A stretch of DNA of 32,000 nt from Nostoc sp. PCC 7120 = FACHB-418 (GCF_000009705.1 NC_003276.1:90001-122000); one strand, 5' to 3'; shown: positions 2,533 through 32,000, numbered from the stretch's first letter. The notes: generated by a model not told the origin, from the sequence alone. Numbers and translations are program-made.

Positions 2533-2609
2533 GTTTTTGTACCATTATTTCGTTACAAGCTCAAGATTACAGGATCTCTGCTCCTCTCTAGTAAGTTTTG
2601 CCACGCTAG

Positions 2610-2617
2610 ATAAAAAT
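2610..2617. repeat. target-site duplication ATAAAAAT, right of IS copy 1
   Basis: Identical 8-mer directly abuts both IS termini. Confidence 0.85.
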
Positions 2618-6608: not shown

Positions 6609-6654
6609 ATCCTTATCTTCATTGGTAACACTACGTTCAATTTCTCGTAATCCT

Positions 6655-7541: not shown

Positions 7542-8057
7542 CTACTCAAATTCAGGTGGCCAAAGTTCTGCGATCTCTAATTCCCAACCTGGAAGTAACT
7601 CTGGTAGAGTCAGTTTGTCATTATCTTTCAAAACAACTGGTTCAAGGTTACGGCGGTAAACTGTCACCAAAACTTTGTCAGGGTCAATAAGGATACCCAC
7701 TGTAGAACCAAGTTCAAGAAATAGCTTGATTTTTTCTTGTAATGGTTTGATGCGGTCACTTTTAGATTTGACCTCAACAGTGAGATCAGGTACTAACTCC
7801 ACAAAGTCACGCTGAGTTTTTTTTAGTCGTTCAGCGCGAACAAAAGACACATCAGGAGCGCGTAAGTTTCTTTTTTCAGGGTTGCCTGTGTTGTCATCAT
7901 TTTCCAGACTAGGCAAGATAAAGCCAGCACTAGAACCAGTCACTCTGCCTAACTTGCGAGGCATAACCCACATATTGAGGAAAGTTAACAGGCGAGAACC
8001 AATTTCATCTGACTCGTAATCGGATGGCCCGCAACCACATAACCCCACTGTGAACAC
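7542..8057 (-). CDS. Uma2-family (DUF820) putative endonuclease, 5' region apparently degraded
   Basis: RAPDVSFV...LVPDLTVEVKSKSD...ELGSTVGILIDPD...LPGWELEIAELW fits the Uma2 pattern common in cyanobacteria. The track ORF begins at a GTG, and an Uma2-type N-terminal motif (GEIQDGEFVEK...SHG) sits upstream at ~8105-8175 in another frame. Confidence 0.6.
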   Translation of the reverse strand: MFTVGLCGCGPSDYESDEIGSRLLTFLNMWVMPRKLGRVTGSSAGFILPSLENDDNTGNPEKRNLRAPDVSFVRAERLKKTQRDFVELVPDLTVEVKSKSDRIKPLQEKIKLFLELGSTVGILIDPDKVLVTVYRRNLEPVVLKDNDKLTLPELLPGWELEIAELWPPEFE

Positions 8058-8459: not shown

Positions 8460-9913
8460 CAATACCTCTGCCAAATTACGAGGGTTCAACACCCGTAGAA
8501 ACGGGATGAATGCGTCCTAAAGAAGTAAGCTTGGCAAAAATCTGGTTTAATAAAATAGGCTCAGGGATTTCGGGAAGCATTTTTAACATTTCACGGACAT
8601 ATCGAAAACCACTCTGGGTGAGCTTTAAGATCAATAATGCCGGAGTCAGGATTAAGGAGACGGAAATCAGATAGAAGATGATGGGATAAGTTGACCATAA
8701 AGAATGCTAGATTAACAGCATTAGTTACAGCAGTTTGACTTAAATTCATAAAATCTTCCAATCCCCAAAACTGCTTCGCATCACGAAAGTTAAACTCGAT
8801 TTGAAAGTGCAGTTTATAGTAATCAATTATCTTTTCGTATGACAACTTTAGGTCACTAGAAAATAGGATTACATGACTATGAGCATTAGTTTTAAGATTG
8901 GTTTTGACCAAAATAACTATATTCAGTGCTTGGGCAAATTCCTTGTGGAGTAAAGTAGCTTGATAAATATCAGTTTTGATATCGTCTTCAATGGTACTTT
9001 TACATAAATATTTATCAGGTATGTTACAGTAGTCAATCTTATCACCGTATTTACGACGAGAGCGACTATTGGAGTCAGGATGTTGATAGGGTATATACAA
9101 TGAGGAATCATGGCGCAACTTGGAAATTATGTGCAAGTTAACTTGCCGAACCATTTGCAAGGCATTATTGTTTCCAAAATGACCGTCTAAGACTAAGTAA
9201 GTTAGGGGGATAAAGTTAGCTATTAACTTGAACAACTCATTAATCATCTTCTTAATTCTTAGTAATTCAGATGTGAGAATTACTTCTGTTTTGTTTTTAT
9301 TTTTACTACCTTTTGGTCGTCCACGTCCACATATTTCTTTGGGTTTGATTTCTGTTGTTGGCGATACACTACTTTTTTCTACATCGCTCTTGATTACCTG
9401 TTCTATTTTAATCGGAAATGAGTGTCTTCGCTTCACACTTACTAATGATAATGTAAAAAAAGATAGCCCTAATATAGGTTTGCTGGCGAGGCTAGAAAAA
9501 AATCTATCCAGCCCATAAGTTTGTTTCCCTGATTTACTGATTACAACTTCATCTCCTGCCAGCAAATACACCTCATTTGCACGGAACAAATGCTTACGAA
9601 AAAATACCCAAAACAACGTTGCCCAAGGTATTACTGTCTGAAAGAATCTTAATATTGTCCGATAACTACCACCAGTCCCTGCCCAACGAGACATTCCCAA
9701 CATTGTGACTCTCCCGCTCATCGCTAACATCGCCAGGATTATCTGGTTCATTCGGCGCATCGTCGTCGCGTTGATCTGCGGTAGCAGGCATTGTAACAAT
9801 GATAGGATGTCTGGCATGGGTGGTTTGTAGTTTTTGAGTTGTCGTTGTGAGAGACAATAACTCTACTACAAAGCGCCCTACCTCTTTATGCTCTTATTTT
9901 GGCTAAGGTATTG
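8460..9913 (-). mobile_element. IS4-superfamily-like IS element (1454 bp), decayed
   Basis: Imperfect terminal inverted repeats match 19/23 by eye (CAATACCTCTGCCAAATTACGAG vs CAATACCTTAGCCAAAATAAGAG). It is flanked by the direct 6-bp AAATAA and carries one long transposase frame. Confidence 0.8.
8476..9817 (-). pseudogene. DDE transposase (IS4-superfamily type) with a 3' frameshift
   Basis: LVLDGHFGNN and YYKLHFQIEFNFRDAKQFWGLEDF fit the Y-2-R-3-E-6-K signature, except that H (CAC, 8807..8809) occupies the R position. The track ORF stops at 8591. A shifted frame continues as ...GFRYVREMLKMLPEIPEPILLNQIFAKLTSLGRIH... to the TAA at 8476, so an indel lies around 8608..8615. Confidence 0.7.
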
Positions 9914-17974: not shown

Positions 17975-19735
17975 ATGCTAAAAGATTTCTCTGGTCAAAA
18001 TCTCAGAGGTCGTTCGTTCAAAGGCGAAGACTTGGGCGGGGCAAACTTTAGCTATGCAGATATCCGAGGGGTAGATTTTAGTGGGTCTAATTTGAGCGGT
18101 GCAAACTTTAGTCATGCTGAAGCTGGGCTACCGTTATATTGGGCAATTGGATTGATTATAATTTCATCTTTATTGACAGCAGTTATAGGGATATGTTTAC
18201 TATTTACTCATATTGTATTAACAGCCATTCTTACGTTTTCTAATAATATCAATATTAGCTTTAAATTTGGCATAATTTGTTCAATTATATTTGCTGTTGC
18301 TTTTACTATTCATAAGAAATTTGTAGCAGGTTTAGAAGCACTTTGTTTGGTCTTTACTGTGGCAGTAGCTATGGCAGTAAGTACCAGTATTATTTTAGAC
18401 ATTACTGCCAATGCTAAAGTAAATGTTCTTGGGAATTTTGCCGTAGCAGTTGCTTTGACTGTGACTATCATTTTTATTATATTTTTTACTGTTGTTGGCA
18501 TTATGAGTATTGCGGTGAGTGCCGGAATTGCAATAGCAGTTTTGGAGTCTGAAAAATTTCTTGTTTTAATTTTTTTCACTATTATTGTCACTATTCTTAT
18601 TCTTTTCTCTTTCATTATCTCAGTTTTTAATATTTATGAAGCTGGAATTTTTACTGGAATTTTCGTGATTTTAAGTGCCTATATGGGAATATTTGTTACA
18701 ACTTCTAAAAAGTATGAGACTGGTATTAAAGAAATTTCCATAGCTGTTGCTGCTATGAAAGGCACTAAATTTCATTTAACCAACTTAAGTAATGCCAATT
18801 TCAGTCATGCCAAACTAAAAAATACAAACTTTGAAAAAGCTAACCTAACTAACGTCTGTTGGAATAATGCTAAAAAGCTTAAATATATTTATCCTATTAG
18901 AATTCATCAAGAGAATGGACAAGTAAATTCAGATAATATAGATTCCCATAAGAGCATTAACTTCACATTCAAAAAGGGGATTGTTTGGGAAGCTTTTTTG
19001 TCTACTTATAAAATAATTGTTGATAATGAAGGTGTCGAGCTAAATATTCAAAGTATTGAGAACAAGAATAATAATGTTTTAGTCATAAAAGTTCAAGTTC
19101 CTGAAGGAGCCAATAAAGCAAATATTTCTAATATTTTTAGACAAAAATACAAAAATGCACTGAAAGCTATAGAAGCGAAATACGAAGGAGAATTAAAAAA
19201 TAAAAACAATCAAATGACCATTTATCGTCAAGTTTATGAAGATAATTTACAACAAAATGCAAATTTGTTAAATATTATAAATAAAATGGCTACAAGTCAG
19301 TCTATAAATATTCAAAATATAGCTAAATCAGAAAGCGAATCTATGTCAGAAAGTTCTAAGAAACAATCTAGCTTTGATCTTAAAGGCGCTCAATTCGGTG
19401 GCGGTCTAGTCAACGCCGATACAGTAAATGCAAACCAAATCGGCGGTAACATCACCAACTACAACCCAGAGCAAAAGCAGAATCTCGCCCAAGCCGCAGC
19501 AGACATTCAGCAGCTTCTCAACCAACTGAGCCAAACCTACCCCACGACTACAACATCGGAGAAAATGAGCGTTGTGGCTAGGGCTGTAGATGAGATTGAG
19601 AGTAACCCAACATTAAAAGCACGGGTAATAGGTGCGTTGAAGGCTGGGGGAACCGAGGCGTTGAAGGAACTAATCGATAATCCTTTGATTAATATACTGC
19701 TGGCATCAATCGACGGGTGGCAAGATGCGGAATAG
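17975..19735 (+). CDS. pentapeptide-repeat / six-TM membrane protein with C-terminal shared motif (586 aa); candidate effector 1
   Basis: Pentapeptide runs occur at both ends of a ~200-aa hydrophobic block (~18130..18710): ANFSYADIRGVDFSGSNLSGANFSHA and TNLSNANFSHAKLKNTNFEKANLTN. A ~85-aa domain shared with the next gene follows, then a K/N/Q-rich stretch, then the motif AQFGGGLVNADTVNANQIGGNITN, then a ~90-aa helical tail. Confidence 0.85.
   Translation: MLKDFSGQNLRGRSFKGEDLGGANFSYADIRGVDFSGSNLSGANFSHAEAGLPLYWAIGLIIISSLLTAVIGICLLFTHIVLTAILTFSNNINISFKFGIICSIIFAVAFTIHKKFVAGLEALCLVFTVAVAMAVSTSIILDITANAKVNVLGNFAVAVALTVTIIFIIFFTVVGIMSIAVSAGIAIAVLESEKFLVLIFFTIIVTILILFSFIISVFNIYEAGIFTGIFVILSAYMGIFVTTSKKYETGIKEISIAVAAMKGTKFHLTNLSNANFSHAKLKNTNFEKANLTNVCWNNAKKLKYIYPIRIHQENGQVNSDNIDSHKSINFTFKKGIVWEAFLSTYKIIVDNEGVELNIQSIENKNNNVLVIKVQVPEGANKANISNIFRQKYKNALKAIEAKYEGELKNKNNQMTIYRQVYEDNLQQNANLLNIINKMATSQSINIQNIAKSESESMSESSKKQSSFDLKGAQFGGGLVNADTVNANQIGGNITNYNPEQKQNLAQAAADIQQLLNQLSQTYPTTTTSEKMSVVARAVDEIESNPTLKARVIGALKAGGTEALKELIDNPLINILLASIDGWQDAE
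19388..19459 (+). other. shared signalling-type motif, instance 1 (AQFGGGLVNADTVNANQIGGNITN)
   Basis: Read codon by codon in the frame of 17975..19735. Confidence 0.8.
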
Positions 19736-19772
19736 TTTGTTGTCAACAGGTGAGCAGAAGGGTTAGCTGAAG

Positions 19773-20882
19773 ATGGCGAATGAGGAGCATCTGGCGATAC
19801 TGAGACAGGGGGTGGAGGTTTGGAATGCGTGGAGAGAAAATAACCCAGATATAAATCCTGACCTTAGCTGTTTGAATTTTAATAAAATTGATTTAGATGG
19901 ATTTAATTTTAGTAATACTGTTATTTTTGGTTCTACTTTTGGCAGTTCTTCTCTCCGAAAAACTTTATTTACTAGAGCCTTTCTACAAAATACAGACCTT
20001 GCAGGCGTTGATTTAACTGGATCTAATTTGCGTGGAGCATTTCTCAATAAAGCTAATTTATTAGGTGCTAATTTGTGTCAGGTAGATTTAAGTTATGCTG
20101 ATCTTTCAGAAACTGATCTGAGTAGTAGCTGCCTGATAAAAGCCAAGTTACTTCAAACAAACCTTGTAAGAGCTTATCTGGCAGGAGCTAATCTTGTAGA
20201 TGCGGATCTCAGCCACGCTAATTTAATGTTAACTACGGCAGCGTACACCAATTTTGAAAGAGCAATATTAACTGGTGCTTGTATTGAAGCTTGGAATACT
20301 AATGAACGTACAAATTTCAATTTTGTGACTTGTGACTATATTTATCTTCGGCACGAACAACAAGAACGCCGCCCCAGCAGTGGTAACTTTGCCCCTGGCG
20401 AGTTCACCAAGTTATTCCAGAAATCTCTAGAAACCGTTGACCTAATCTTTCGCAATGGTATCGACTGGGATGCTTTCGCTTACTCCTTCAAAAAGGTAGA
20501 AGTCGAAAACCAAGGCGCACAATTGGATGTCCAAAGCATTGAAAAGAAAGGCGATGGCATTCTTGTAGTTAGAGTGGCTGTTGCCCCTGATGCAGATAAG
20601 GCGAAAATTCACAACGATTTCATGCAGGGGTATGAATTTGCGGCTAAGACATTGGAAGCACAGTATCAAGCAAGACTTGAAGATAAAGACAAAGTAATTA
20701 ATCAGCTATTTTCCACCATCGACCAGCAAAATCAGTTACTAGCTCAGACTGGCGATAAAGTTTCAATTTACTATCAACCGAACTCTCAGTTTGCAGGTGG
20801 CATAGTGGATGCCAATACTGTCGATGCACAGCAAATTGGTGGTAATATTCAAAACAATAACACTGAAGACTTCTCAAGTTGA
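19773..20882 (+). CDS. soluble pentapeptide-repeat protein with C-terminal shared motif (369 aa); candidate effector 2
   Basis: The opening ILRQGVEVWNAWRENNPDINPDLS and ~130 aa of A(D/N)LXX repeats are typical. The shared domain (DLIFRNGIDWDAFAYSFKKVEVENQGAQLDVQSIEKKGDGILVVRV...) and the motif SQFAGGIVDANTVDAQQIGGNIQN lie 9 codons before the stop. The stop is 3 nt before the next start. Confidence 0.85.
   Translation: MANEEHLAILRQGVEVWNAWRENNPDINPDLSCLNFNKIDLDGFNFSNTVIFGSTFGSSSLRKTLFTRAFLQNTDLAGVDLTGSNLRGAFLNKANLLGANLCQVDLSYADLSETDLSSSCLIKAKLLQTNLVRAYLAGANLVDADLSHANLMLTTAAYTNFERAILTGACIEAWNTNERTNFNFVTCDYIYLRHEQQERRPSSGNFAPGEFTKLFQKSLETVDLIFRNGIDWDAFAYSFKKVEVENQGAQLDVQSIEKKGDGILVVRVAVAPDADKAKIHNDFMQGYEFAAKTLEAQYQARLEDKDKVINQLFSTIDQQNQLLAQTGDKVSIYYQPNSQFAGGIVDANTVDAQQIGGNIQNNNTEDFSS
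20784..20855 (+). other. shared motif, instance 2 (SQFAGGIVDANTVDAQQIGGNIQN)
   Basis: Frame of 19773..20882; 9 codons from the stop. Confidence 0.8.
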
Positions 20883-20885
20883 CCC

Positions 20886-22841
20886 ATGCCGGACTCACAA
20901 GACCCGAAGCAAGTCAATAACAACGACTTACGCAATGCCCAGTTTGGAGGCGGGTTGATAAATGCTGAGAATGTCAATGCTGGCAGAATTGGCGGAGATA
21001 TTTGGAATATTTTCTTAGGACAGCAGACAACACCAATAGGCAATCCGGCTCGACCAAGGAACGAACGGATACTACTCGCCGCAGCTAAGGAAGAAGTTAC
21101 AGCGCGGTTAAGGCAATCTCTACATAATGCCGTGCTGATTAATTTAGGGAAGGAGTCACAACCCCAGCAGGTAAAACGCCCTTGGGATGCAGAAATAAAA
21201 ATCGGCTTGAAGCCGGCCGTTCCTCTTTCAGACACGACAACTATCTTGGAAGTTTTTAATTCCCCGGAAATTGCAGGAAAATTACTAATTTTGGGTGCGC
21301 CAGGGTCAGGTAAGACAACCACACAACTAGAACTGGCTCAAGAATTAGTTAAACGTGCAGAAGAGCAGTCTGATTATCCTGTTCCCGTTTTATTTAACTT
21401 ATCTTCTTGGAAAGATGATCGGCAATCTATAACTGATTGGTTGGTGGCTGAACTTAAATCTAAATATGGGGTTTCAAAAAAGCTTGGCCAAGAGTGGGTA
21501 GACAACCACCAATTACTACCATTACTTGATGGTTTAGACGAACTTGAACCACAACGTCAAGAACTCTGCGTTCATGCAATCAATCGATTTTTAGGAGGCG
21601 AAGATAGACCACTTTATTTAGCTATTTGTAGTCGGAGTGAGGAATATAGTAACTATGCGACTCAATTACAACTTAATGGTGCGATTTACTTACAGCCTTT
21701 AACTAACAACCAAATTTATGATTATTTAACTTCTATAAATTATATAGAACTGTGGTCAACTATCAGTAACGACTTAGATTTAATAGAGTTAGTAAAAACT
21801 CCCTTACTATTGGGCATTACTGTTCTAGCCTCTCAAGAAATATCTGTTGAAAAATGGCAGCATTTAACTTCTACAGCAGACCGGGTTCAATATTTGCTAG
21901 ATGTCTATATAGTACGGATGTTGACACGAAATATTAACAGTAGGACATATTTGAAGAACAAAACTCCTAATACTAGACAAACTCAAATGTGGCTTGTTTG
22001 GTTAGCCAAACAAACACAAAAGCAATCTAAAACTGAATTTTTAATTGAAGAAATACAGCCTAGTTATTTAAATGGCAGATTTGAAAATTTCAGTTATTAT
22101 TTTCTATATACTTTAAGCATATTCTCGATTTTTGGAATTGGTCTTGCTTTAATGATACATGATATATTAGCTAGTATTTTATTTATAATTTTTGAAATAT
22201 TTATGGGTTTGATTACAGGTCTAATTTTAGGGCTGATTTTAGATATGGAACCTAAATCGATAATTTTAGTAGAAAAACTCACTTTTTTCCCAATCAATGT
22301 AGATATTTTACTATTTTCTATATTTGTAACTATGTTGCCTTGGATGCTTTTATCAATTTCCTTAAAGATACCTTTAGGAAATTTTATACTGAATTTAATA
22401 ATAATTTTAGGTCTATTTTATGGTTCTCTTTCTAAAGAACCTGACCGAGTTATAGACAATAAAAAAGTTCCGAATCAAGGTATTTGGAAGTCCGGATTCA
22501 ATGCTGTTTTTTTAGGGCTTGTTGCAATAGGATCTTATGGGTTGATTTATGTATTCACTCATAACGAGATTTGGTGGCTATTTTTAGAGCCAGTATGGAG
22601 GCTAGGATTAGGGCTAACACTGGTGCTGACATGGGGTTTATTTTATGGTGGTGATGCGTGCATTCAACACTTTGCCCTTCGCCTTACCCTTTACTTAAAC
22701 GGACACATCCCCTGGAACTACGCCCGTTTCCTCGACTACTGCACCGAGCGTATGCTACTCCAGCGTGTCGGCGGCCGCTACCGCTTCATCCACAAATTGC
22801 TGCAAGACCACTTCGCCCAAATGGAGTTCAGGCGAGATTAA
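20886..22841 (+). CDS. NACHT-family STAND NTPase 1 with N-terminal shared motif and an embedded multi-TM region (651 aa)
   Basis: Walker A GAPGSGKTT (21294..21320), Walker B LLPLLDGLDEL, and the motif AQFGGGLINAENVNAGRIGGDIWN at residues 18-41. A hydrophobic block lies at ~22090..22670. The terminal YRFIHKLLQDHFAQ is typical of the end of NACHT modules. Confidence 0.9.
   Translation: MPDSQDPKQVNNNDLRNAQFGGGLINAENVNAGRIGGDIWNIFLGQQTTPIGNPARPRNERILLAAAKEEVTARLRQSLHNAVLINLGKESQPQQVKRPWDAEIKIGLKPAVPLSDTTTILEVFNSPEIAGKLLILGAPGSGKTTTQLELAQELVKRAEEQSDYPVPVLFNLSSWKDDRQSITDWLVAELKSKYGVSKKLGQEWVDNHQLLPLLDGLDELEPQRQELCVHAINRFLGGEDRPLYLAICSRSEEYSNYATQLQLNGAIYLQPLTNNQIYDYLTSINYIELWSTISNDLDLIELVKTPLLLGITVLASQEISVEKWQHLTSTADRVQYLLDVYIVRMLTRNINSRTYLKNKTPNTRQTQMWLVWLAKQTQKQSKTEFLIEEIQPSYLNGRFENFSYYFLYTLSIFSIFGIGLALMIHDILASILFIIFEIFMGLITGLILGLILDMEPKSIILVEKLTFFPINVDILLFSIFVTMLPWMLLSISLKIPLGNFILNLIIILGLFYGSLSKEPDRVIDNKKVPNQGIWKSGFNAVFLGLVAIGSYGLIYVFTHNEIWWLFLEPVWRLGLGLTLVLTWGLFYGGDACIQHFALRLTLYLNGHIPWNYARFLDYCTERMLLQRVGGRYRFIHKLLQDHFAQMEFRRD
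20937..21008 (+). other. shared motif, instance 3 (AQFGGGLINAENVNAGRIGGDIWN)
   Basis: Residues 18-41 of NACHT-1. Confidence 0.8.
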
Positions 22842-22927
22842 GAAAGAATTTGCATCTGTTGAACTCAAAAACTTGAGTGATATTATTTTCAGTAACAACG
22901 CTTAAGCTTGCCCAAATAAACTAATCC

Positions 22928-25078
22928 ATGCCAGACTCAGAAAAACCAAAGCAAGTCAACAATAATAATCTACAAAATGCCCAATTTGGTGGTGGGTTGA
23001 TTAATGCCGACACGGTGAACGCCCAAAGAATAGGTGGTGACATTTGGAATTTTTTCTTTGGGCAGCAGCTAGCACCAGAAGCAAACTTTTTAAGACCAGA
23101 AAATCAGAGACTAGTACTAGCTGATGTTAAGCATGAAGTTAATGGGCGACTGAAACAATCTCTACATAACACTGTGCTAATTAATCTGGGAAAAGAGTTA
23201 CAACTGCAACAAGTAAAAAGATATTGGGATGCGGAGATAAAAATTGGGACTAAACCACCTGAACCCGTTTCAGAGAATACAACTATCTTATCAGTTTTTG
23301 ATTCTGAAGAAATAGCCGGTGAATTGTTGATTTTAGGTGCGCCAGGAGCGGGTAAAACAACTACACAGTTAGAACTAGCACAAGCACTAATTAAGCAGGC
23401 TGAAGAAAACCCTACTTATCCTATACCAGTATTAATTAATCTTTCCTCTTGGAAAGATAAAAATCAACCAATTAGTGAATGGTTGGTAGTTGAACTCAAG
23501 TCCAAGTATGGTATTACAAAACAGCTTAGTCAGCATTGGTTAATAAATCGACAATTACTTCTTTTATTAGATGGTTTAGATGAAGTTAAACCAATATTTC
23601 AAGAGGCTTGTGTTAAATCTATTAATCAACTAGTGCGAGGAGAATATCGATCTTCATCTATAGTAATTTGCAGTCGTTCTCAAGAATATCAAAATTATAA
23701 AACTAACCTTCGGATTAACGGGGCAATTTGCTTAAAACCTTTAACTAAAAAGCAAATAAACAAATATCTCATTGAAATTAATAATGCTGATTTATGGGAA
23801 ACTATTAACAATGATTTCAATTTACTGGAGTTAGTTAAATCTCCCTTACTACTTAGTATTACCATTATAGCAGCAAGAGAAATATCTCTTAGTAAATGGC
23901 AGCATTTAGAGTCTACCCAAGAGCATCTTGAGCATTTGCTCAATGCGTATGTGCAGCGAATGTTAACAAGAGAGATTAATAGTAATTTATTTGTTAAAAA
24001 TAAGGCTCCTAATGCTGCGAGAACTTGCTTTTGGCTTGGATGGTTAGCGCAGAATTTACAAAGAGAATCACAAACTGAATTTTTAATTGAAAAAATGCAA
24101 CCATCTTGGTTAGCAGATAGTATTCTCAAAAAACAATATCGAGTTCAGGCTTACCTAATTGGAGGTCTTGTTGTATTATGTTTTAGTTTAGTTGTGGGTC
24201 TAATTGCAGGTCTAATTGGAGAACTGTTAGACATCCTTCAAGGATTCGGATTAATTGAAGGCTTAATTGCAGGTTTATGTATTGGTTTAATCTCTGCACC
24301 AGTTTTTGGTGTTTTTTTTGGATTAAACAAAGAAATAAAACCTATTGAGACTCTAATTTGGTCTTGGAAAAGAGCTAAATTGGGTTTTAAAAATGGTTTA
24401 GTTCTAGCTGCAAAGATTGGGATGTTTATTACAATTTTTTGCTTAATAATTGCCATTACTATTGATGTAATTTCTAATGGGGTAGCCATAAATTTTCATC
24501 GAACAATTGTGTTAATTTATGCAGTAATGTTTGGGCTAATATTTGACCTATTTTTTACGTTGCTCTTTGGTTTGCTATTGGGATTACTTTTTGCTCTAAA
24601 TGATGGACTTGTTAATTTGGAGATGAAAGCAAAAGTCACTCCAAATCAAGGTATCTCAAATTCAGTAATTAATGCTGGGGTCACTGGGATAATTCATGGA
24701 TTGAGCCTTAGTTTCTTTTTAGGGTTGATGAGTGGGTTAATCGGTTGGCTTAGTTTGTTGAGCCTAAAGATTAGCTTTCCTCAAGAAGCTGTATCAGCAG
24801 AAGCATGGTTCTCGACGACTTTAAATATTACTCTTTTTGCATCTATCACTGGACTCGTTTTTGGGTTAGTTAGTGGATTAATTAGCGGTAGAGTTTGTAT
24901 TGAACACTTTACTCTCCGCCTCATCCTTTACTGTAACGGCTACATCCCCTGGAATTACGCCCGTTTCCTCGACTACTGCACCGAGCGTATGCTGCTCCAG
25001 CGTGTCGGTGGCCGCTACCGCTTCATCCACAAACTGCTGCAAGACCATTTCGCGCAAATGGAGTTTAGGCAAGATTAA
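22928..25078 (+). CDS. NACHT-family STAND NTPase 2 (paralogue; 716 aa) with N-terminal shared motif and an embedded multi-TM region
   Basis: Walker A GAPGAGKTT (23336..23362), Walker B LLLLLDGLDEV, and the motif AQFGGGLINADTVNAQRIGGDIWN at residues 18-41. A hydrophobic block lies at ~24148..24890. The last ~45 aa are nearly identical to NACHT-1. Confidence 0.9.
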   Translation: MPDSEKPKQVNNNNLQNAQFGGGLINADTVNAQRIGGDIWNFFFGQQLAPEANFLRPENQRLVLADVKHEVNGRLKQSLHNTVLINLGKELQLQQVKRYWDAEIKIGTKPPEPVSENTTILSVFDSEEIAGELLILGAPGAGKTTTQLELAQALIKQAEENPTYPIPVLINLSSWKDKNQPISEWLVVELKSKYGITKQLSQHWLINRQLLLLLDGLDEVKPIFQEACVKSINQLVRGEYRSSSIVICSRSQEYQNYKTNLRINGAICLKPLTKKQINKYLIEINNADLWETINNDFNLLELVKSPLLLSITIIAAREISLSKWQHLESTQEHLEHLLNAYVQRMLTREINSNLFVKNKAPNAARTCFWLGWLAQNLQRESQTEFLIEKMQPSWLADSILKKQYRVQAYLIGGLVVLCFSLVVGLIAGLIGELLDILQGFGLIEGLIAGLCIGLISAPVFGVFFGLNKEIKPIETLIWSWKRAKLGFKNGLVLAAKIGMFITIFCLIIAITIDVISNGVAINFHRTIVLIYAVMFGLIFDLFFTLLFGLLLGLLFALNDGLVNLEMKAKVTPNQGISNSVINAGVTGIIHGLSLSFFLGLMSGLIGWLSLLSLKISFPQEAVSAEAWFSTTLNITLFASITGLVFGLVSGLISGRVCIEHFTLRLILYCNGYIPWNYARFLDYCTERMLLQRVGGRYRFIHKLLQDHFAQMEFRQD
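22979..23050 (+). other. shared motif, instance 4 (AQFGGGLINADTVNAQRIGGDIWN)
   Basis: Residues 18-41 of NACHT-2. Confidence 0.8.
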
Positions 25079-25159
25079 AAGAAATTTCGTTTCAGTTGAC
25101 CTAAAAACAAAGGTGATAGTATTTACAATAACAACGCTTAAGCCTGCCCAAACTGACCT

Positions 25160-25327
25160 ATGCCGGACTCCCAAGACCCAAAGCAAGTCACCAATAACAA
25201 TGCACCCAATTGTCAGTTTGGTGGAGGGTTGATTAATGCTAAGTCTGTCAAGGCAGAGCGGATAAGATGCTACATTTACAACACTTATCCACCCTGCGTT
25301 TGCGTTAGACAATTACAATACTTGTAG
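25160..25327 (+). pseudogene. truncated 5' end of a third NACHT paralogue
   Basis: MPDSQDPKQVTNNNAPNCQFGGGLINAKSVKAERI... parallels the first ~35 residues of both NACHT genes, and the preceding spacer matches the spacer before NACHT-2. Similarity is lost by ~25275, and the frame runs into the 3' end of the convergent giant gene. Confidence 0.6.
25211..25282 (+). other. shared motif, instance 5, decayed (CQFGGGLINAKSVKAERIRCYIYN)
   Basis: Lies in the truncated third NACHT start. The first two thirds are conserved; the IGGDIWN part is degraded. Confidence 0.6.
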
Positions 25328-28300
25328 AGTTAATCGCAATTTTATTTGACAGAGTGGCAATTTGAACGGCAGTATTCGCCCCTATACCGTCAACATCAAA
25401 CAACAGAGCGCCAGTTGCTTGATTGTAGATAAAGCGATCGCTTCCATCTTGTGCAGATGAACCCAAGACAAATTGTGATGCGTCCAGATTACCAGCTACA
25501 AGCCCACTACCGAACCCAGCAGCATTGACACGAATTTTGTCATCAGCAACGCTAAAGTCTGTAATGGTGTCAATGCCATCAGCAAGAGAAGAGAAGCTAA
25601 AAATATCTTTCCCACTACCACCAGTTAAGCGATCGTTACCGCTACCACCGACGAGAATATCATCACCGTCATTGCCAGTTAAGTTGTCATTACCTCCGAA
25701 ACCAAAAATGGTATCGTTGCCAGCACCACCAGAGACATTATCACTGCCATTGCCACCTATAAAAGTATCGTCGCCACCTCCCAGGTCAACAATTGCATTT
25801 TGGTAGCTTCCTAATAGTGTAATTACATCATTACCGCCTTGAGCGTTATTAACTGGCTCATCACCCTTCATGTTGATGAAGAACTTGCTATTATTCATCG
25901 TTACTGTAATGTTATCGTCGCCGTAGCCTCCAGTAATCTTGCCATCAGAACGTGGGGAGTTGTTGGGATTACTATCATTATCCCAGTTGGCAGCAAAAGT
26001 AACGTTGATTGTATCGTTGCCTAAACCACCATGCGCTCCTAAGATTCCATCTGGATCGGTAATTGCATCATCTCCATCACCGCCAAACAACCGATCAAAT
26101 CTTCCAATCCCACCATCTATTGTGTCATTCCCAGCTAAACCTTCTATATAATCATCACCACCAAAGCCGTTGAGAACATCTGCACTAGATGTACCAGAAA
26201 GGGAATTATTAGTATCATTACCAGGATTGATATTGGAGGCTGTTACTGTCAACGCAAAAATGTCTGTAACAGTAGTTCCTTGATTATCGCTGGCTGTAAC
26301 TTTGATATTCAAAATACCCGCATTGTTAGTAGTAGGATTGCCGCTAAAGGTACGAGTATCAGTATTAAAATTCAACCAACTTGGTAAGGGATCACCATTT
26401 TCTAAGGTGGTGCTGTAGCTGAGGATATCACCAGTATCTACTTCAGAGAAAGTATTTTCGGGAATGGTAAAGGTGAAGGTATTATTGGCTGCAACGGCTT
26501 GATCAGCGATTGCATTCGCTAGTATCGGTGCGTCATTGGTATTAGCAACTGTCAAGGTAAAGACATCACTAACATTTGCACTAGACTTATCAGTTGCAAT
26601 AACTTTAATGTTGAGTGTGCCAACCTCGCTATTAATTGGCGTACCAGCAAATGTGCGGTTAGTGGGATTAAACGTTAACCAACTTGGTAAAGCCGCACCT
26701 TCTTCTAAAGTTGCCGAGTAAGCTAGGATATCGTCTGCATCTACATCAGCAAAGGTATTCACCGGGATGATGAAGCTGAAGGTACTGTCTTCAGTGGCAG
26801 TTTGGTCAGCGATCGCATTCTCTAGTGTGGGTGCATCATTAGTATTAAGGACTGTCAGGGTAAAAACATTACTAGCACTTGCTTGGGATTTGTCAGTAGC
26901 GATGACTTTAATACTGAGTGTATCAACTTCGCTGTTGGTTGGTGTGCCGCTAAAGGTTCTAGTTGCTGCATCAAAGGTTAACCAACTTGGTAATTCATCA
27001 CCATTTTCTAATGTCGCTGTATAAGTTAGGGTGTCGCCTGTATCAACGTCGTTGAAAGCATCAGCAGGAATTTGGAAGTTGAAAGCTGTGTCTTCTGTCG
27101 CTGTTTGGTTTGCGATCGCATTTGCTACAGTTGGTGCATCATTAGTGTTAATTACTGTCAGGGTGAAGATATCACTTAGGCTTGCACCAGCATTATCAGT
27201 TGCGGTGACTTTAATATTGATTGTGCCAACTTCATCGTTAGTTGGTGTACCGCTAAATGTACGAGTGCTGGGATTGAAGTTTAACCAATTTAGTAAATCT
27301 GCACCGTCTGCTAATGTTGCACTGTAAGTTAGGGTATCGCCTGCATCTACATCAGCAAAGGTATTAGCTGGGATAGTGAAGGTAAAGGCGCTGTCTTCAG
27401 TTGCAGTTTGATTGGCAATCGCATTTTCTAATGTCGGTGCGTCATTAGTATCACTATTAGCCACCGTCAGGGTGAAGACATCACTTACACTTGCACCAGC
27501 ATTGTCAGTTGCGGTAACTCTGATATTGACTGTGCCAACTGAGTTGTTAGTGGGTGTACCAATAAATGTGCGGGTGCTGGGATTGAAGCTTAACCAATTT
27601 GGTAAATTTGCACCGTCTGCTAATGTTGCGCTGTAAGTTAGGGCATCACCTGCATCTACATCAGTAAAGGTATTAGCTGGGATAGTGAAGGTAAAGGCTG
27701 TGTCTTCGGTTGCAGTTTGATTGGCGATCGCATTTGCTAGAGTTGGTGCATCATTAACAGCCGTAATCTCTAAAGTAATAGTTTGAGATGCTGTACCACC
27801 TTTGCCGTCACTGACGGTGTAACTGAAACTTCCAGCACTGCCATTGGCGTTGACAACTGAGACAAAAACTAAGCTTGTCAGTTGTTGAGTAGTTAGGGTT
27901 GTGTTAACAGTGACAACTGTGTTATCAGGTAAGCGAATTATGCCTTTGCTTGCTTCTGGAACGGCGGTTATAGTGATAGTTAAGAGATCGTTATCTGTAT
28001 CAGTTGGGGTTGCGATCGCTAAAGGAGTAGTTACAGAATCTTCTGCAACTGTCAAAACTTTATTTGCCTGGGTTACAGGAGCCTGATTTGCGGAATTACC
28101 AAACAGTTTGTTTAAAATATCAGTACCAGAAAGGTTATCAACCTTTTCAATAAATCCTGTACCTGCACTACTGGAATTGAAGAAATTTATTATACTTAAA
28201 TCACTTTCTGGGGTTGTGATACCATCTTGATTTAAGTCAATGAGTAGCGTGGTTCCAAGTCTTTGTATTCCGGCCGTACCAATAGTTGGTGTAGATAGCG

Positions 28301-31300
28301 AGAGATTGATATCTGTAAGGTCGAGAGTATCGTTTTCTCCGTCATCTTCAATTTTGCTGCCTCCAGCAGTTTGGGCTGCCAAGATATAAGTATCATTGCC
28401 TAAACCAGCTTTGAGAGTATCTGCACCGCCGCCACCTGTGAGTTTATCATCAAGATTGCCACCTAATAATTCATCACCGTAGCGAGTTCCAGTAATATCA
28501 AAACGTTCGATATTACTGTAGCGAACATGACTTGGCCCCCAAGTAGAAATTTCACCACTTCCGGTGGCTAAGTCTAAAGAGTTATAGCGAACGCCGATAT
28601 CAACGTAAGAAGACAGAGCAAGGGAACCGTAAAGCCCGTGATTGCTTGTTTCATCACGATTAACTGTAGTAACGAGAGTTGCTTGTCCAGTTTTATAAGG
28701 ATCTGCGACGTATAAGCCGTATGAACCATAACCTTGATTATCTGCATTAATAGCTTTGATAAACGCTACTTTTGCTCCATCAGCAGCTAACACTGGCTCA
28801 GATCCACCAACAACCCTAAAATCATAGCTTTCTGCTACTTGCTGAATTTCTGTACTGTTTGTGCTACTAACAGATAGGAAATATCTGTCTTGCCAGATAG
28901 CTTTTATTCCATCACTACTGGATAAGCTAAGATTGCCGTCCACTAATGATTTTACGACTGGAAGACTGGTACTGGTACTAGCTGACCAAATGCCATATTT
29001 TTCTCCTTGATATCCAGCCCAGATAATTTGAGAACCATTTTCTGAGAGAAAGCTTTTAGTAGAACTTTGGGTTATCTCGCGGATATTTGTACCATCCGTA
29101 TTGGCAACCAAAAGTTGATTCCCATTGTTCCAAGAAACTTGACTGCCATCACCTGAAAGGGACAAGCTGTATATATAGCCGTTGATATTATTCAGATTAA
29201 TCCTAATCTTTTCAGTTCCGTTGGTATTAGCTACATAAACCCGCCATCCGTCACTCCAAGCTATCTTTTCGCCGTCTGTTGAGAGCGCAATTTCAGTGGC
29301 AATTTCATCAATTTTTACAAGGCCACCAGAATCATCTATTTTTTTGATCCATAGACCATTAGCTGGGTCGTTATAGTTTATATACGTGTAATAAGCATAA
29401 GTTGTACCGTCAGCAGAAAGAGCAAATTTATCACTAACAGAATTGGTTTCTCTAATTTTTAGTGGAGTTCCCAAACCGTAGGCATTACCGATGAAAAACT
29501 TTTGAAGATAGTTACCTGATGTGCCAGAGAGAGTCCTCCAAGCTACGGCACGAGTATTTAAATTAGAGTAGTCCAACACTAAAACATCTGTGCCTGCACC
29601 GCCATCAACAACATCATTACCCCAACCCGGAGTCAGGGTATCGTTGCCGTTTCCTCCCTGGAGTGAATCATTGCCATCTTCACCGTTGAGGAAATCGTTG
29701 CCATCCTGCCCCCATAAGGTGTCATTACCAGCACCACCACTCAAGGTATCGTTACTTAACCAACCATCAATAAAGTCATCTGCCGCGCTACCAGAAATCG
29801 TATCATCGCCAACTTGTAATTTGCTGAGAATCTCAGCACCAGCTAAATTAGCGACGGTTTCAATAAAACCTGTTCCAGCACCAGTTCCAACAGTATCAAA
29901 GAAGTTGAGAATGGTGAGGTCAGTTTTGGAAGCAGCAATTCCGTCTTTGTTGAGGTCAATTATTAAGCTTGTACCAGCCCGTCTCATCCCGAAAATTCCT
30001 GTTGTTGGAACTGCTAAGGAGAGATCAGCATCTGTAATTCTTGGGGTATTCGTAGCGCCAGGATTCCTTGTTGTCAGCCTTAAAGTATCTGTACCCCCAG
30101 CATCCTCGATTTGACTTCCGCCAGCATTTTGAGTATCGAGAATATAAATATCATCGCCTAAGCCCGCTTTGAGGGTATCTGCACCACCGCCACCCATAAG
30201 TGAATCATCAAGGTTGCCGCCGAATAACTCATCGCCATAGCGAGTTCCGATAATGTCGAACCTTTCAAAATTGCTGTAGCGGATGCGACTTGGCCCCCAA
30301 GTGTAAATTTCACCGCTACCTGTAGCTGGGTCAAAGGAGTTATAGCGAACGCCAAGATCAACATAGCTAGATAAAGCATGACCTCGACCAATACCTATAT
30401 TGGGTGAAGAAGCATCAATGAGAATTTGAGGCTCTATGCCATCTATGTCACCTACGTACAGAGAATAGTCGGAACCATTAAATTTAGTAAAAACAACTCT
30501 TCTGCTGTCTCCTGCTAGAGATTGTTGGGCAAATTCTCCAACTTCTTCGGTGTTAGGAACAACCCAGAAGCGAGAACCATCTGTAGTAGCTGCATAGAGA
30601 TTGGTTGAAGCGTAGCCGGCTCCTTGATAACCTGCCCAAACAACTGTAGAACCATCAGCAGATATAGAGGGGTTAATATTATACCCATAAAGATTACCTG
30701 AAAGTTCTCTGATGTTAGTGCCATCTGTATTAGCAACCCATACCCCACCTGGGCCATACCCTCCATCCTGAGACCAAGTAATTTTAGAACCATCGGCAGA
30801 AAGATCGAGTTCACGAACACCACCGCTACCGGTAGGTATGTTAATCTGTCTTAAATTTTTACCATCAGCGTTAGCAATGAAAATTGTGTAGGTAAATTTG
30901 TTGTCGTTACGTTTACTACGTAACCACGCGATAGTGCTACCATCCTCTGAAATAGTCGCTAAGTAGTCACCATCGCCATAGCCAATGTTTATACTTAACT
31001 TGGTCAGTTGTCGAACTTGAGTTCCGTTAGTATTAGCAATCCAAATACTATCCCCTTGACTCCAAACAACTTTGCTGCCATCTTCTGAAAGCAGAGGTTG
31101 ATAAACCTGATTATTAGGAATGACTCTCACGGCCGGGTCTGAGCTATGAATCTTCTTAACCCAAAGACCTTGATTGCCACTACCATTGCTTCCCAATATT
31201 CCAGAACCTGCAACCGTTAACCCATCTGCCGAAAGAGTAGCATGATAATTGCCAGATACATTTATATCAGTCTTGATGGGTGCGCCAATCCCATAAGCAT

Positions 31301-32000
31301 TAGCGACATAGACAAACCAATCGCTAGTATTTGGATCTAGTTCTGACCAAGCGACAGCCTGCGTGGGTAAAGAAGAATAATCAATGACTAAGGTATCTGT
31401 ACCAGTACCCCCATCAATGACATCATCTCCCCAGCCAGGGCTGAGTCTGTCATCGCCTGCACCACCACTAATAAAATCGTTACCCTCGCCACCATCAAAT
31501 TCATTATTGTCCTCATCACCAATTAAGGTATCGTCATATCGAGAACCAACAATTTGTTCGATAGATTGAAAGACATCATCGGCTGCATCTCCCGTTGATA
31601 CCTGAGTTACTAAGTTAATAGAGATAGCACTGGTAGCACTTGTATAACTAGCAGTATCAAAGCCTGCACCACCATTAAGGATGTCTGCACCTGCACCACC
31701 ATCTAACCAATCATCACCATCATCGCCATAAACGAAATCATCCCTATCACCACCATAAAGACGATCCCAATCTGCACCTCCACGAATTGTGTCACTCCCA
31801 CTACCTCCGTAGATTAAATCTTCTCCAGCACCGCCTTTTAAGTCGGCGGAAATTTCAATATCTGGTTTGATCTCAATAGTGTCATTTTTTGTACCGCCAT
31901 CAGCAATTATCTTGCTAACACCACTATAAGTCTGTGGAATGTTAAACGCAGAAACAGTCAATTTTCCATCGGTTGTGAAAACGGTAAAAACTTCTGCACC
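25305..32000 (-). CDS. giant RTX-type calcium-binding exoprotein with TolB/PD40-like beta-propeller modules and cadherin-like repeats (>2218 aa, 5' end outside the window)
   Basis: The frame stays open upstream of the track's TTG to the window edge. Many GGxGxD nonapeptide repeats occur at the N-terminal region, mid-protein and C-terminal region. Repeated ...SADGSKITWSQ...VWVANTDGTNIRE... blades are present. There are five NDAPT...FTLTV repeats. The tail ...DKIRVNAAGFG...DRFIYNQATGALLFDVDG... is typical of T1SS-secreted RTX proteins. Confidence 0.9.
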   Translation of the reverse strand, partial: GAEVFTVFTTDGKLTVSAFNIPQTYSGVSKIIADGGTKNDTIEIKPDIEISADLKGGAGEDLIYGGSGSDTIRGGADWDRLYGGDRDDFVYGDDGDDWLDGGAGADILNGGAGFDTASYTSATSAISINLVTQVSTGDAADDVFQSIEQIVGSRYDDTLIGDEDNNEFDGGEGNDFISGGAGDDRLSPGWGDDVIDGGTGTDTLVIDYSSLPTQAVAWSELDPNTSDWFVYVANAYGIGAPIKTDINVSGNYHATLSADGLTVAGSGILGSNGSGNQGLWVKKIHSSDPAVRVIPNNQVYQPLLSEDGSKVVWSQGDSIWIANTNGTQVRQLTKLSINIGYGDGDYLATISEDGSTIAWLRSKRNDNKFTYTIFIANADGKNLRQINIPTGSGGVRELDLSADGSKITWSQDGGYGPGGVWVANTDGTNIRELSGNLYGYNINPSISADGSTVVWAGYQGAGYASTNLYAATTDGSRFWVVPNTEEVGEFAQQSLAGDSRRVVFTKFNGSDYSLYVGDIDGIEPQILIDASSPNIGIGRGHALSSYVDLGVRYNSFDPATGSGEIYTWGPSRIRYSNFERFDIIGTRYGDELFGGNLDDSLMGGGGADTLKAGLGDDIYILDTQNAGGSQIEDAGGTDTLRLTTRNPGATNTPRITDADLSLAVPTTGIFGMRRAGTSLIIDLNKDGIAASKTDLTILNFFDTVGTGAGTGFIETVANLAGAEILSKLQVGDDTISGSAADDFIDGWLSNDTLSGGAGNDTLWGQDGNDFLNGEDGNDSLQGGNGNDTLTPGWGNDVVDGGAGTDVLVLDYSNLNTRAVAWRTLSGTSGNYLQKFFIGNAYGLGTPLKIRETNSVSDKFALSADGTTYAYYTYINYNDPANGLWIKKIDDSGGLVKIDEIATEIALSTDGEKIAWSDGWRVYVANTNGTEKIRINLNNINGYIYSLSLSGDGSQVSWNNGNQLLVANTDGTNIREITQSSTKSFLSENGSQIIWAGYQGEKYGIWSASTSTSLPVVKSLVDGNLSLSSSDGIKAIWQDRYFLSVSSTNSTEIQQVAESYDFRVVGGSEPVLAADGAKVAFIKAINADNQGYGSYGLYVADPYKTGQATLVTTVNRDETSNHGLYGSLALSSYVDIGVRYNSLDLATGSGEISTWGPSHVRYSNIERFDITGTRYGDELLGGNLDDKLTGGGGADTLKAGLGNDTYILAAQTAGGSKIEDDGENDTLDLTDINLSLSTPTIGTAGIQRLGTTLLIDLNQDGITTPESDLSIINFFNSSSAGTGFIEKVDNLSGTDILNKLFGNSANQAPVTQANKVLTVAEDSVTTPLAIATPTDTDNDLLTITITAVPEASKGIIRLPDNTVVTVNTTLTTQQLTSLVFVSVVNANGSAGSFSYTVSDGKGGTASQTITLEITAVNDAPTLANAIANQTATEDTAFTFTIPANTFTDVDAGDALTYSATLADGANLPNWLSFNPSTRTFIGTPTNNSVGTVNIRVTATDNAGASVSDVFTLTVANSDTNDAPTLENAIANQTATEDSAFTFTIPANTFADVDAGDTLTYSATLADGADLLNWLNFNPSTRTFSGTPTNDEVGTINIKVTATDNAGASLSDIFTLTVINTNDAPTVANAIANQTATEDTAFNFQIPADAFNDVDTGDTLTYTATLENGDELPSWLTFDAATRTFSGTPTNSEVDTLSIKVIATDKSQASASNVFTLTVLNTNDAPTLENAIADQTATEDSTFSFIIPVNTFADVDADDILAYSATLEEGAALPSWLTFNPTNRTFAGTPINSEVGTLNIKVIATDKSSANVSDVFTLTVANTNDAPILANAIADQAVAANNTFTFTIPENTFSEVDTGDILSYSTTLENGDPLPSWLNFNTDTRTFSGNPTTNNAGILNIKVTASDNQGTTVTDIFALTVTASNINPGNDTNNSLSGTSSADVLNGFGGDDYIEGLAGNDTIDGGIGRFDRLFGGDGDDAITDPDGILGAHGGLGNDTINVTFAANWDNDSNPNNSPRSDGKITGGYGDDNITVTMNNSKFFINMKGDEPVNNAQGGNDVITLLGSYQNAIVDLGGGDDTFIGGNGSDNVSGGAGNDTIFGFGGNDNLTGNDGDDILVGGSGNDRLTGGSGKDIFSFSSLADGIDTITDFSVADDKIRVNAAGFGSGLVAGNLDASQFVLGSSAQDGSDRFIYNQATGALLFDVDGIGANTAVQIATLSNKIAINSTSIVIV
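26241..27755 (-). repeat. five tandem ~303-bp coding repeats (cadherin-like / putative Ig-type domains) inside the giant gene
   Basis: The NDAP(T/I) unit boundary recurs with period ~303 nt, visible as ggtgc(a/g)tcatt on the plus strand at ~26528, 26831, 27133, 27436 and 27745. Units 1 and 2 are the most similar to each other. Confidence 0.85.

Follow-up and report, generated by a model that had tools for sequence, protein, structure and literature searches.

Why do two pentapeptide-repeat proteins and two NACHT NTPases, encoded one after another, carry the same short peptide? The question is raised by a 32,000-nt stretch of Nostoc sp. PCC 7120 = FACHB-418 (NC_003276.1:90001-122000), here called the window, from whose first letter positions are counted. 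Four of its genes, two for pentapeptide-repeat proteins (PRPs; PRP1 and PRP2) and two for NTPases of the STAND class (signal transduction ATPases with numerous domains; NACHT1 and NACHT2), each encode a copy of a glycine- and asparagine-rich element that we call the tag, and a remnant open reading frame (ORF) behind them has a decayed fifth copy (Table 1). Comparison of related sequences shows that the tag holds the adaptor/effector slot of the NTPase and that its exchange for another type is concerted between the two partner genes. Based on these comparisons, it is very likely that the tag couples the PRPs to the NACHT proteins. A matched-tag coupling module, in which assembly of the tags links the NACHTs to the PRPs, is in our judgement the probable explanation of the locus as a whole.

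The tag in the window and across genomes

The ORF calls place the four genes on the plus strand with gaps of 37, 3 and 86 nt (PRP1/PRP2, PRP2/NACHT1 and NACHT1/NACHT2, respectively), as an initial annotation made from the sequence had stated, and translation yields exactly the four 24-mers that it listed, with the decayed copy at the position it gave. With a profile hidden Markov model (HMM) built on the motif, the four intact copies reach 61-64 bits (E about 1e-17 to 1e-18) and the decayed copy reaches 36 bits. The PRP1 and NACHT1 tags have 71% of their residues in common and use different codons at 14 of the 17 conserved residues, which argues that the copies are not a recent DNA duplication. 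Two parts of the first description are amended here. The 24-mer stands, but the conserved unit is nearer to 32 residues, with class-specific flanks; the PRP1-class consensus from 29 orthologues is NLQGAQFAGGLVNADTVNANQIGGNITNYNPE. The 24-residue element is indeed shared, but it is not the sole likeness of PRP1 and PRP2, which align at 33% identity across 256 columns (BLASTP, E 7e-34) and have ~200 residues in common, made up of a conserved module, a long helix and the tag.

In scans of the four window proteins, no Pfam, NCBIfam or PADLOC model covers the tag. PRP1 and PRP2 match Pfam Pentapeptide repeats alone (E 1e-19 and 6e-24) and contain tandem A(D/N)LXX repeats, while NACHT1 and NACHT2 match NACHT alone, at 35.2 and 43.5 bits against a curated cut-off of 26.7 (E 1.4e-8 for NACHT1), and have intact Walker A (GxxGxGK[ST]) and Walker B (hhhhDGhDE) motifs. 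The tag of the window, hereafter type A, was found in 172 proteins (E≤1e-3) among 1.84 billion representative proteins, using an exhaustive search with profile A3, which is related to and slightly longer than the HMM scored on the window copies; a word-indexed short-profile search returned 11 short fragments only and was replaced by the exhaustive one. Given 172 matches in 1.84 billion proteins, five copies within 7 kb cannot be chance. A pattern scan of one genome per species identified 73 loci, nearly all in Nostocales. The genera involved are Nostoc, Dendronalium, Anabaena, Scytonema, Calothrix, Brasilonema, Aetokthonos, Rhizonema and Stigonema, and two loci are from metagenome-assembled genomes of Symploca. 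No phage-encoded copies (possible decoys) were present in a viral contig collection.

Six-frame ORFs scored with the motif HMM reveal a recurrent gene order: a PRP with a transmembrane (TM) block, module, tag and tail, then a PRP with module and tag, then a tagged STAND gene, often followed by more tagged genes. A tagged ORF lies directly upstream on the same strand, mostly at -29 to about 100 nt, for 60 of the 76 N-terminally tagged STAND ORFs (≥200 aa), a count that is descriptive and not an unbiased genome-wide statistic because locus sampling started from the motif itself. This is not the picture of the generic linker that the initial annotation had named as its refutation. The survey of tag placement that it proposed, carried out here in part, located the tag almost solely at STAND N-termini or near the C-termini of proteins encoded upstream.

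Among profile matches of at least 200 aa, tags at residues 1-48 belong to NACHT (15), NB-ARC (6), AAA_35 and WD40 proteins; further N-terminal carriers in the loci are nSTAND1, NB-ARC+TPR, NACHT+HEAT and tag-TIR-NACHT-HEAT proteins, a tag-CHAT-AAA_35 protein and a tag-WD40 protein that has no NTPase. The tagged AAA_35 proteins are about 466 aa long and have no sensor or effector domain of their own. C-terminal carriers are led by Pentapeptide (27 of 56 representatives) and CHAT (8), with TRADD-N, TIR_2, AbiTii, REase, SLOG, Pkinase and Abhydrolase as rarer types and FGE-sulfatase seen in the loci. In these partners the tag is followed by the protein end, by an 87-aa tail, or by a CHAT domain of about 195 aa; proteins with the order PRP(TM)-module-tag-CHAT are encoded upstream of NACHT-TM genes. 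There is also a natural Pentapeptide-tag-AAA_35 fusion (L043:3983-6067), with a stretch resembling tag type C (see below) ahead of its tag, and an FGE-sulfatase protein with two tandem type-A tags, one STAND-flavoured and one PRP1-flavoured, plus the tail (L004:5274-6680). These assignments are from Pfam scans, since single-linkage clustering of the tagged ORFs fused 151 of 155 into one cluster.

Related cassettes occur on plasmids of many Nostoc strains. An eight-gene array on a plasmid of Nostoc sp. TCL26-01 (L078:7361-23754), six of whose genes are tagged, reads PRP, PRP, tag-WD40, tag-NACHT-TM, tag-AAA_35, AAA-like, tag-AAA-like, AAA-like. This array adjoins genes for a strawberry-notch-like NTPase and XisH/XisI.

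Slot equivalence and concerted exchange

A type-A tag is carried by 58 of 120 close NACHT1 homologues. Those that do not have it continue with the same downstream sequence (…GQQTTPVGNPARPKNERILL…), but at the N-terminus some have an effector-associated domain (EAD1, E 2e-29; EAD10, E 1e-24) or a fused CHAT domain, some lack any extension, and others bear one of three further tags, types B, C and D; P0345, P0377 and P0383 are homologues with EAD1, EAD10 or fused CHAT in place of the tag. Types B (NINTGGGNYNERIEGDYIQGN), C (VVQGNQNRVVQGNENQSVLGDNNTVVQGNNN) and D (FGGGQQAAIGNDNIQNQGNNNW) are likewise short and G/N/Q-rich, and type C weakly matches an antifreeze beta-roll model. In each of the five loci examined in which a NACHT carries tag type B, C or D (Table 1), the upstream pentapeptide protein has the cognate tag before its tail. 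One upstream protein has tags C and B in tandem, and the two NACHT genes downstream of it begin with B and C. Slot equivalence and concerted exchange are the strongest evidence for a partner-matching element. Taken together with the co-encoded tagged partners, they point to a matched-tag coupling module of the kind known from bacterial amyloid signalling sequences (BASS), fungal HET-S/NWD2 pairs and EADs, and the core proposal of the initial annotation, such a module at this locus, gains support from tag placement as well as from the equivalence and exchange.

Nature of the contact and alternative explanations

Short amyloid-type relay motifs that link NOD-like receptors (NLRs) to effectors have been established for fungi and for a single E. 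coli system, and are only predicted for most bacteria. The composition of the tag resembles that of such motifs, with enrichment of G (3.2-fold), N (2.05), I (1.5), Q (1.26) and V (1.16) and depletion of K (0.04), P (0.09) and L (0.25). The bias reported for BASS is enrichment in G/N/Q/V/I and depletion in K/P/L (10.1101/2020.01.06.895854, section 9), and the 24-32 aa tag agrees with the BASS compositional profile (about 25 aa, G/N/Q/V/I-rich, K/P/L-poor). It was in gene pairs of a Bell-domain protein and an NLR that BASS motifs were described (Dyrka et al. 2020, 10.1101/2020.01.06.895854). For one pair, Bab/Agp with motif BASS11, an antiphage amyloid relay has been demonstrated by experiment, and the same motif also accompanies TIR, CHAT, NACHT and NB-ARC (10.1101/2024.11.07.622273).

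The locus shares with BASS pairs a motif of ~25 aa at the partner's C-terminal region and at the N-terminus of a NACHT/NB-ARC protein from the adjacent collinear gene, very short intergenic gaps, the G/N/Q-rich, K/P/L-poor make-up, restriction to filamentous bacteria, presence of the same motif on CHAT, TIR and alpha/beta-hydrolase proteins, and 'all-in-one' fusions. Relatives of the window partners that bear CHAT, TIR or hydrolase domains recall the non-Bell BASS pairs in particular. Unlike BASS, the tag sequence falls outside the published BASS1-10 sets (word-level comparison), the window partners are PRPs with a conserved module instead of Bell pore-formers, an 87-aa tail follows the PRP1 tag, the NLRs have TM blocks in place of TPR or WD repeats, and as many as six tagged genes form one array. 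The BASS preprint (10.1101/2020.01.06.895854) makes no mention of pentapeptide-repeat partners. HET-S/NWD2 and other fungal (FASS) pairs also match an NLR N-terminal motif to the C-terminal motif of an effector encoded next door, and the tandem motif pair on their partner side recurs in some relatives of the window proteins; in contrast to them, the window has no HeLo-like domain, a single tag copy on both PRPs, and a tag that matches no PDB chain in sequence.

EAD1-EAD11 embody the same coupling principle with folded, mostly alpha-helical domains of 60-90 aa (Kaur et al. 2020, PMC7159879). Here too one copy resides on the core NTPase and others on variable partners of the same operon, and EAD1/EAD10 hold the tag slot in NACHT1 homologues, whereas the tag is a 24-32 aa glycine/asparagine-rich element, predicted to be unstructured, with a predicted local distance difference test score (pLDDT) of about 30. 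No Pfam EAD model matches the window proteins. The comparison with BASS and EAD that the initial annotation called for, made here in part (word-level against the BASS sets, Pfam models for EAD), therefore locates the tag in neither. Type B-D strings are also absent from the published BASS sets at word level, the shorter words IGGNI and IGGDI turn up at a few places of the PMC8086366 sets within unrelated motifs, and six tag-specific strings of 6-7 residues have no occurrence in the indexed literature. As far as could be tested, then, this tag family was not found described. A five-residue periodicity is visible by eye (GGLVN / ADTVN / ANQIG / GNITN). The tag as one coil of a pentapeptide beta-helix was rejected as anything more than speculation, with single tags and four-tag concatemers matching no Pfam Pentapeptide model at E≤10.

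A matched-tag module would work as follows. The NACHT proteins would sense a signal, probably via their variable TM block, and would then bind NTP and oligomerise, bringing their disordered N-terminal tags together. The clustered tags would then seed homotypic beta-assembly with those of PRP1 and PRP2, most likely amyloid-like as in BASS and HET-S/NWD2, and this assembly would concentrate or switch the partners, the outputs in the window being the six-helix PRP1 and the soluble PRP2 beta-helix. In CHAT-bearing relatives, a caspase-like protease placed directly after the tag could be activated by induced proximity. Growth arrest or cell death would follow, and the operon may have an antiphage function. 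MfpA and Qnr bind gyrase; purely by analogy, PRP2 might act on DNA-binding enzymes as they do. We hold the parts of this scheme with different confidence: that the PRPs are the output arm is an even bet, and amyloid-like templating at the contact, suggested by likeness to known systems, is a tentative assignment that falls somewhat short of even chances.

Several observations weigh against the matched-tag module with amyloid-like assembly. Tag-tag binding and fibril formation are something we infer from sequence, and the adjacency counts have the descriptive status noted above. The tag is predicted to be unstructured in monomers of PRP2 and NACHT1 modelled with AlphaFold2 (AF2), a disorder that does not discriminate between readings. 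QFGGG, QFAGG, GGLINA and GGLVNA are absent from the BASS1-10 sets (PMC8086366 and the 2020 preprint; word-level matching only), no PDB chain matches the tag, and PADLOC gives weak sub-domain P-loop matches for the NACHTs and none for the PRPs. To our knowledge, the pentapeptide beta-helix, the commonest partner, has no killing activity, and the FGE-sulfatase partners and the tag-WD40 protein resemble sensors rather than effectors. Finally, type-A tags within one locus are no more alike than those of different loci (0.652 vs 0.644 and similar). Fine-scale co-evolution is therefore not seen, and specificity, if any, would lie between tag types rather than individual loci.

The same wiring could rest on a non-amyloid contact, the tag being a short linear motif in a defined small complex (beta-augmentation, 1:1 or in a ring on the oligomerised NTPase) that acts in the way proposed for globular EADs and templates no self-propagating fold. 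Such a contact would suit a slot held in common with EAD1/EAD10, which are proposed homotypic adaptors (PMC7159879), tag flavours that are strongly class-specific and conserved across genera as for a fixed interface, and the internal position of the PRP1 tag, with the 87-aa domain or CHAT behind it. We nevertheless find it doubtful: the length, the G/N/Q/I/V-rich and K/P/L-poor make-up, the disorder and the occasional tandem copies are the signature of BASS and fungal amyloid motifs, and EADs, as 60-90-aa folded domains, are unlike the tag. An unlikely alternative assigns the PRPs to the input arm, as DNA-mimicking beta-helix baits or sensors for phage DNA-binding proteins; their signal would reach the NACHT-TM proteins by way of the tag, with the NACHT TM block as executioner. 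Pentapeptide repeats have been classed as sensor-type repeats of bacterial NACHT proteins (10.1101/2022.07.19.500537, supplementary discussion), the PRP2 model resembles the gyrase binders MfpA and Qnr, and the sensor-like tag carriers and the AAA_35 proteins described above would fit a sensing PRP. Against this, the N-terminal slot of STAND proteins is normally the effector/adaptor side (with CHAT, EAD1 or EAD10 in it in NACHT1 homologues), classical effector domains (CHAT, TIR, hydrolase, REase) account for most of the non-PRP partners, PRP(TM) relatives bear CHAT right after the tag, and within the NACHT proteins variability is greatest in the TM block, as for a sensor.

That a third factor reads the tag as a signal for processing, sorting or degradation (for instance a double-glycine leader or protease site) we consider highly improbable. 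The conserved IGG[ND], the location at protein termini and the CHAT proteases of related loci could be read that way, but the tag is N-terminal, near C-terminal and, in natural fusions, internal, the window encodes no C39-peptidase transporter or other common reader, and concerted exchange of four tag types between partner genes would be unexpected of such a signal. A double-glycine leader reading of IGG[DN] was rejected by inspection, with unfit positions upstream of GG and with tags that are C-terminal and internal. The last alternative, a functionless by-product of low complexity, recent duplication or gene conversion, has a negligible chance of being correct: NACHT1 and NACHT2 are tandem paralogues whose last 57 codons are 90% identical in DNA, making some gene conversion plausible, but codons differ at most conserved residues among the tag copies, unrelated protein families have kept the tag from Nostoc to Symploca, and it is extremely rare in the protein search above. 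An artefactual origin of the repeat is excluded.

Beyond the matched-tag module itself lies a bolder version, for which we see only a slim chance: Nostocales PRP/NACHT-TM modules would use at least four mutually orthogonal amyloid-like address tags, and the tag would fold as one rung of a quadrilateral beta-helix, which could be stacked onto, or templated by, the partner's pentapeptide helix. If types A-D were such address tags, several STAND sensors would be wired to shared pentapeptide-repeat outputs, and if rungs stacked in this manner, PRPs would be a new class of polymerisation-controlled immune effectors.

The operon in detail, its plasmid setting and its significance

Table 1. Coordinates of the operon and its elements in the window, and of the loci with other tag types.
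Feature	Position	Strand	Description
PRP1	17975..19735	+	586-aa membrane PRP: pentapeptide repeats, TM block, pentapeptide repeats, shared module, tag, helical tail
PRP1 hydrophobic block	18119..18706	+	aa 49-244; about six TM helices (Kyte-Doolittle scan)
PRP1 copy of PRP1/PRP2 shared module	18947..19234	+	aa 325-420; then helical or coiled stretch until tag
Tag copy 1, PRP1 flavour	19388..19459	+	AQFGGGLVNADTVNANQIGGNITN; residues 472-495; profile HMM 61 bits
PRP1 C-terminal tail	19460..19732	+	about 87 aa; after tag in PRP1-type and many other partner proteins
PRP2	19773..20882	+	369-aa soluble PRP; tag 8 residues before C-terminus
PRP2 shared module and long helix	20415..20747	+	aa 215-325; many invariant residues across 71 homologues
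Tag copy 2, PRP2 flavour	20784..20855	+	SQFAGGIVDANTVDAQQIGGNIQN; residues 338-361; 63 bits
NACHT1	20886..22841	+	651 aa: tag, linker, NACHT NTPase, about six TM helices, conserved winged-helix-like C-terminal end
Tag copy 3, NACHT flavour	20937..21008	+	AQFGGGLINAENVNAGRIGGDIWN; NACHT1 residues 18-41; 64 bits
NACHT1 Walker A	21294-21317	+	GAPGSGKT
NACHT1 Walker B	21522-21542	+	LLDGLDE
NACHT1 TM block	22077..22697	+	aa 398-604; six long helices in low-confidence AF2 model; hydropathy scan
NACHT2	22928..25078	+	716 aa; NACHT1 paralogue, same architecture
Tag copy 4	22979..23050	+	AQFGGGLINADTVNAQRIGGDIWN; NACHT2 residues 18-41; 63 bits
NACHT2 Walker A	23336-23359	+	
NACHT2 Walker B	23555-23584	+	
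NACHT2 TM block	24137-24901	+	
Remnant of further tagged STAND gene	25160..25327	+	55-codon ORF
Tag copy 5, decayed	25211-25282	+	CQFGGGLINAKSVKAERIRCYIYN; inside remnant ORF; 36 bits
Type B/C/D loci examined	L083:1-4753, L084:5800-10097, L085:3035-7115, L086:3823-8313, L087:4187-7992		

The architecture of PRP1 is kept upstream of tagged STAND genes in many loci. Its Pentapeptide matches (residues 19-48 and 260-298) lie on both sides of the hydrophobic block, for which orthologues have 4-8 predicted TM helices; an even number would leave both flanks of the block facing the cytoplasm. For PRP2, the AF2 model (71 homologues) has a beta-helix at residues 25-200 with pLDDT above 90, low confidence at residues 218-270, a helix at 276-325, and a tag with pLDDT about 30 and no secondary structure. 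Foldseek matches this model to HetL, NP275/276, MfpA and Qnr. With these proteins and AlbG the window PRPs share a predicted right-handed quadrilateral beta-helix; unlike them, they add a module of about 100 aa, a long helix and the tag, and PRP1 further adds the six-helix membrane block and the tail. None of the solved pentapeptide-repeat proteins is linked to a STAND NTPase. The shared module itself has no Pfam match and no credible sequence relative in the PDB. The tag ends 91 of 115 PRP2 homologues among the matches listed, and a protein identical to PRP2 is annotated on a plasmid of Anabaena sp. FACHB-709. In a further locus (L077:7089-8850, CP183474.1), the PRP1 gene is probably disrupted, because it is called as two ORFs (218 + 356 aa); its PRP2 gene and its two NACHT genes have ORF calls equal in length to those of the window.

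The tail that follows the PRP1 tag is constant at 87 residues across many unrelated architectures, including PRP, FGE-sulfatase, hydrolase and kinase proteins, and it comes after tag types B and D as well. Its helical sequence (…QNLAEAAAEIQQLL…ALKAGG.EALK…GWQEAE) is seen in the window and at many partner C-termini in L001-L087, and neither a Pfam family nor a function was found for it. The proposal that the PRP1 tail is EAD9 was rejected, as 0 of 21 diverse tails match EAD9 at E≤1; one relative of the tail, P0059, gives a sub-threshold EAD9 match of 21 bits. L086 and L087 have a different tail, unrelated to the first and hydrophobic at its end, again with no family or function found.

NACHT1 has 2100 homologues. 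Its AF2 model is of low confidence (mean pLDDT 56.7) and was used solely for N-terminal disorder and the count of TM helices; residues 1-54, including the tag, are unstructured in it (pLDDT 25-30). NACHT1 and NACHT2 are 51% identical, with well-conserved N-terminal halves and last 57 residues and a divergent, gapped TM block. Over those last 57 codons (22668-22838 vs 24905-25075), DNA identity is 90% and 52 of 57 residues agree, which could reflect local gene conversion or very strong constraint. NCBIfam gives the window NACHTs a weak EruA match far below its cut-off, and neither it nor PADLOC assigns them to a defence family. A class of bacterial NACHTs with several TM regions, which in some cases lie within the module, is already on record (Kibby et al., 10.1101/2022.07.19.500537). 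The window NACHTs resemble the antiphage NACHTs of that study in their NACHT module with intact Walker motifs and in the multi-TM class, and differ in that a short tag rather than an effector domain forms the N-terminus.

The remnant ORF does contain the decayed tag that the initial annotation ascribed to a third NACHT start, but its best match is the N-terminus of the 795-aa AAA-like gene of the TCL26-01 plasmid array (51 bits, vs about 45 bits for NACHT), so that a third NACHT is not established. The spacers before NACHT2 (22842-22927) and before the remnant (25079-25159) are alike (…AACAACGCTTAAGC.TGCCCAAA…), and in other loci tandem tagged STAND genes repeatedly lie 82-83 nt apart. This recurrence suggests a conserved intergenic unit between such genes. 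A promoter and terminator scan of the operon returned nothing beyond what shuffled sequences give, and no terminator was found in the intergenic gaps, as co-transcription would allow.

The surroundings of the operon are those of a variable, mobile plasmid region. An insertion sequence (IS)-like ORF pair (248 + 262 aa, with a weak MULE transposase match) is present in two copies (951-2532 and 5862-7443), and an AIPR abortive-infection ORF that looks truncated or interrupted (2537-3574) starts right beside the first of them. A Uma2-family endonuclease (7542-8057) and a DDE_5 transposase (8591-9817) follow. On the minus strand, a giant RTX/Big_9/He_PIG adhesin-like gene (25305-31961; 3083 aa in the full contig) is oriented toward the operon and reaches with its 3' end into the end of the remnant ORF.

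The locus extends the known NLR-associated short relay tags and is not a categorically new system. To these it adds a tag family undescribed as far as we found, which belongs to a set of at least four exchanged concertedly by partner genes; an unusual class of partners, the pentapeptide-repeat proteins, one of them membrane-embedded; and NLRs with membrane blocks at the sensor position. Its location on an apparent alpha-type plasmid in a genetically tractable PCC 7120-like cyanobacterium would make tag orthogonality, cross-seeding and induced-proximity activation testable. The role of cyanobacterial pentapeptide-repeat proteins is a long-standing puzzle, and the coupling described here offers a possible function for some of the many that these organisms encode.

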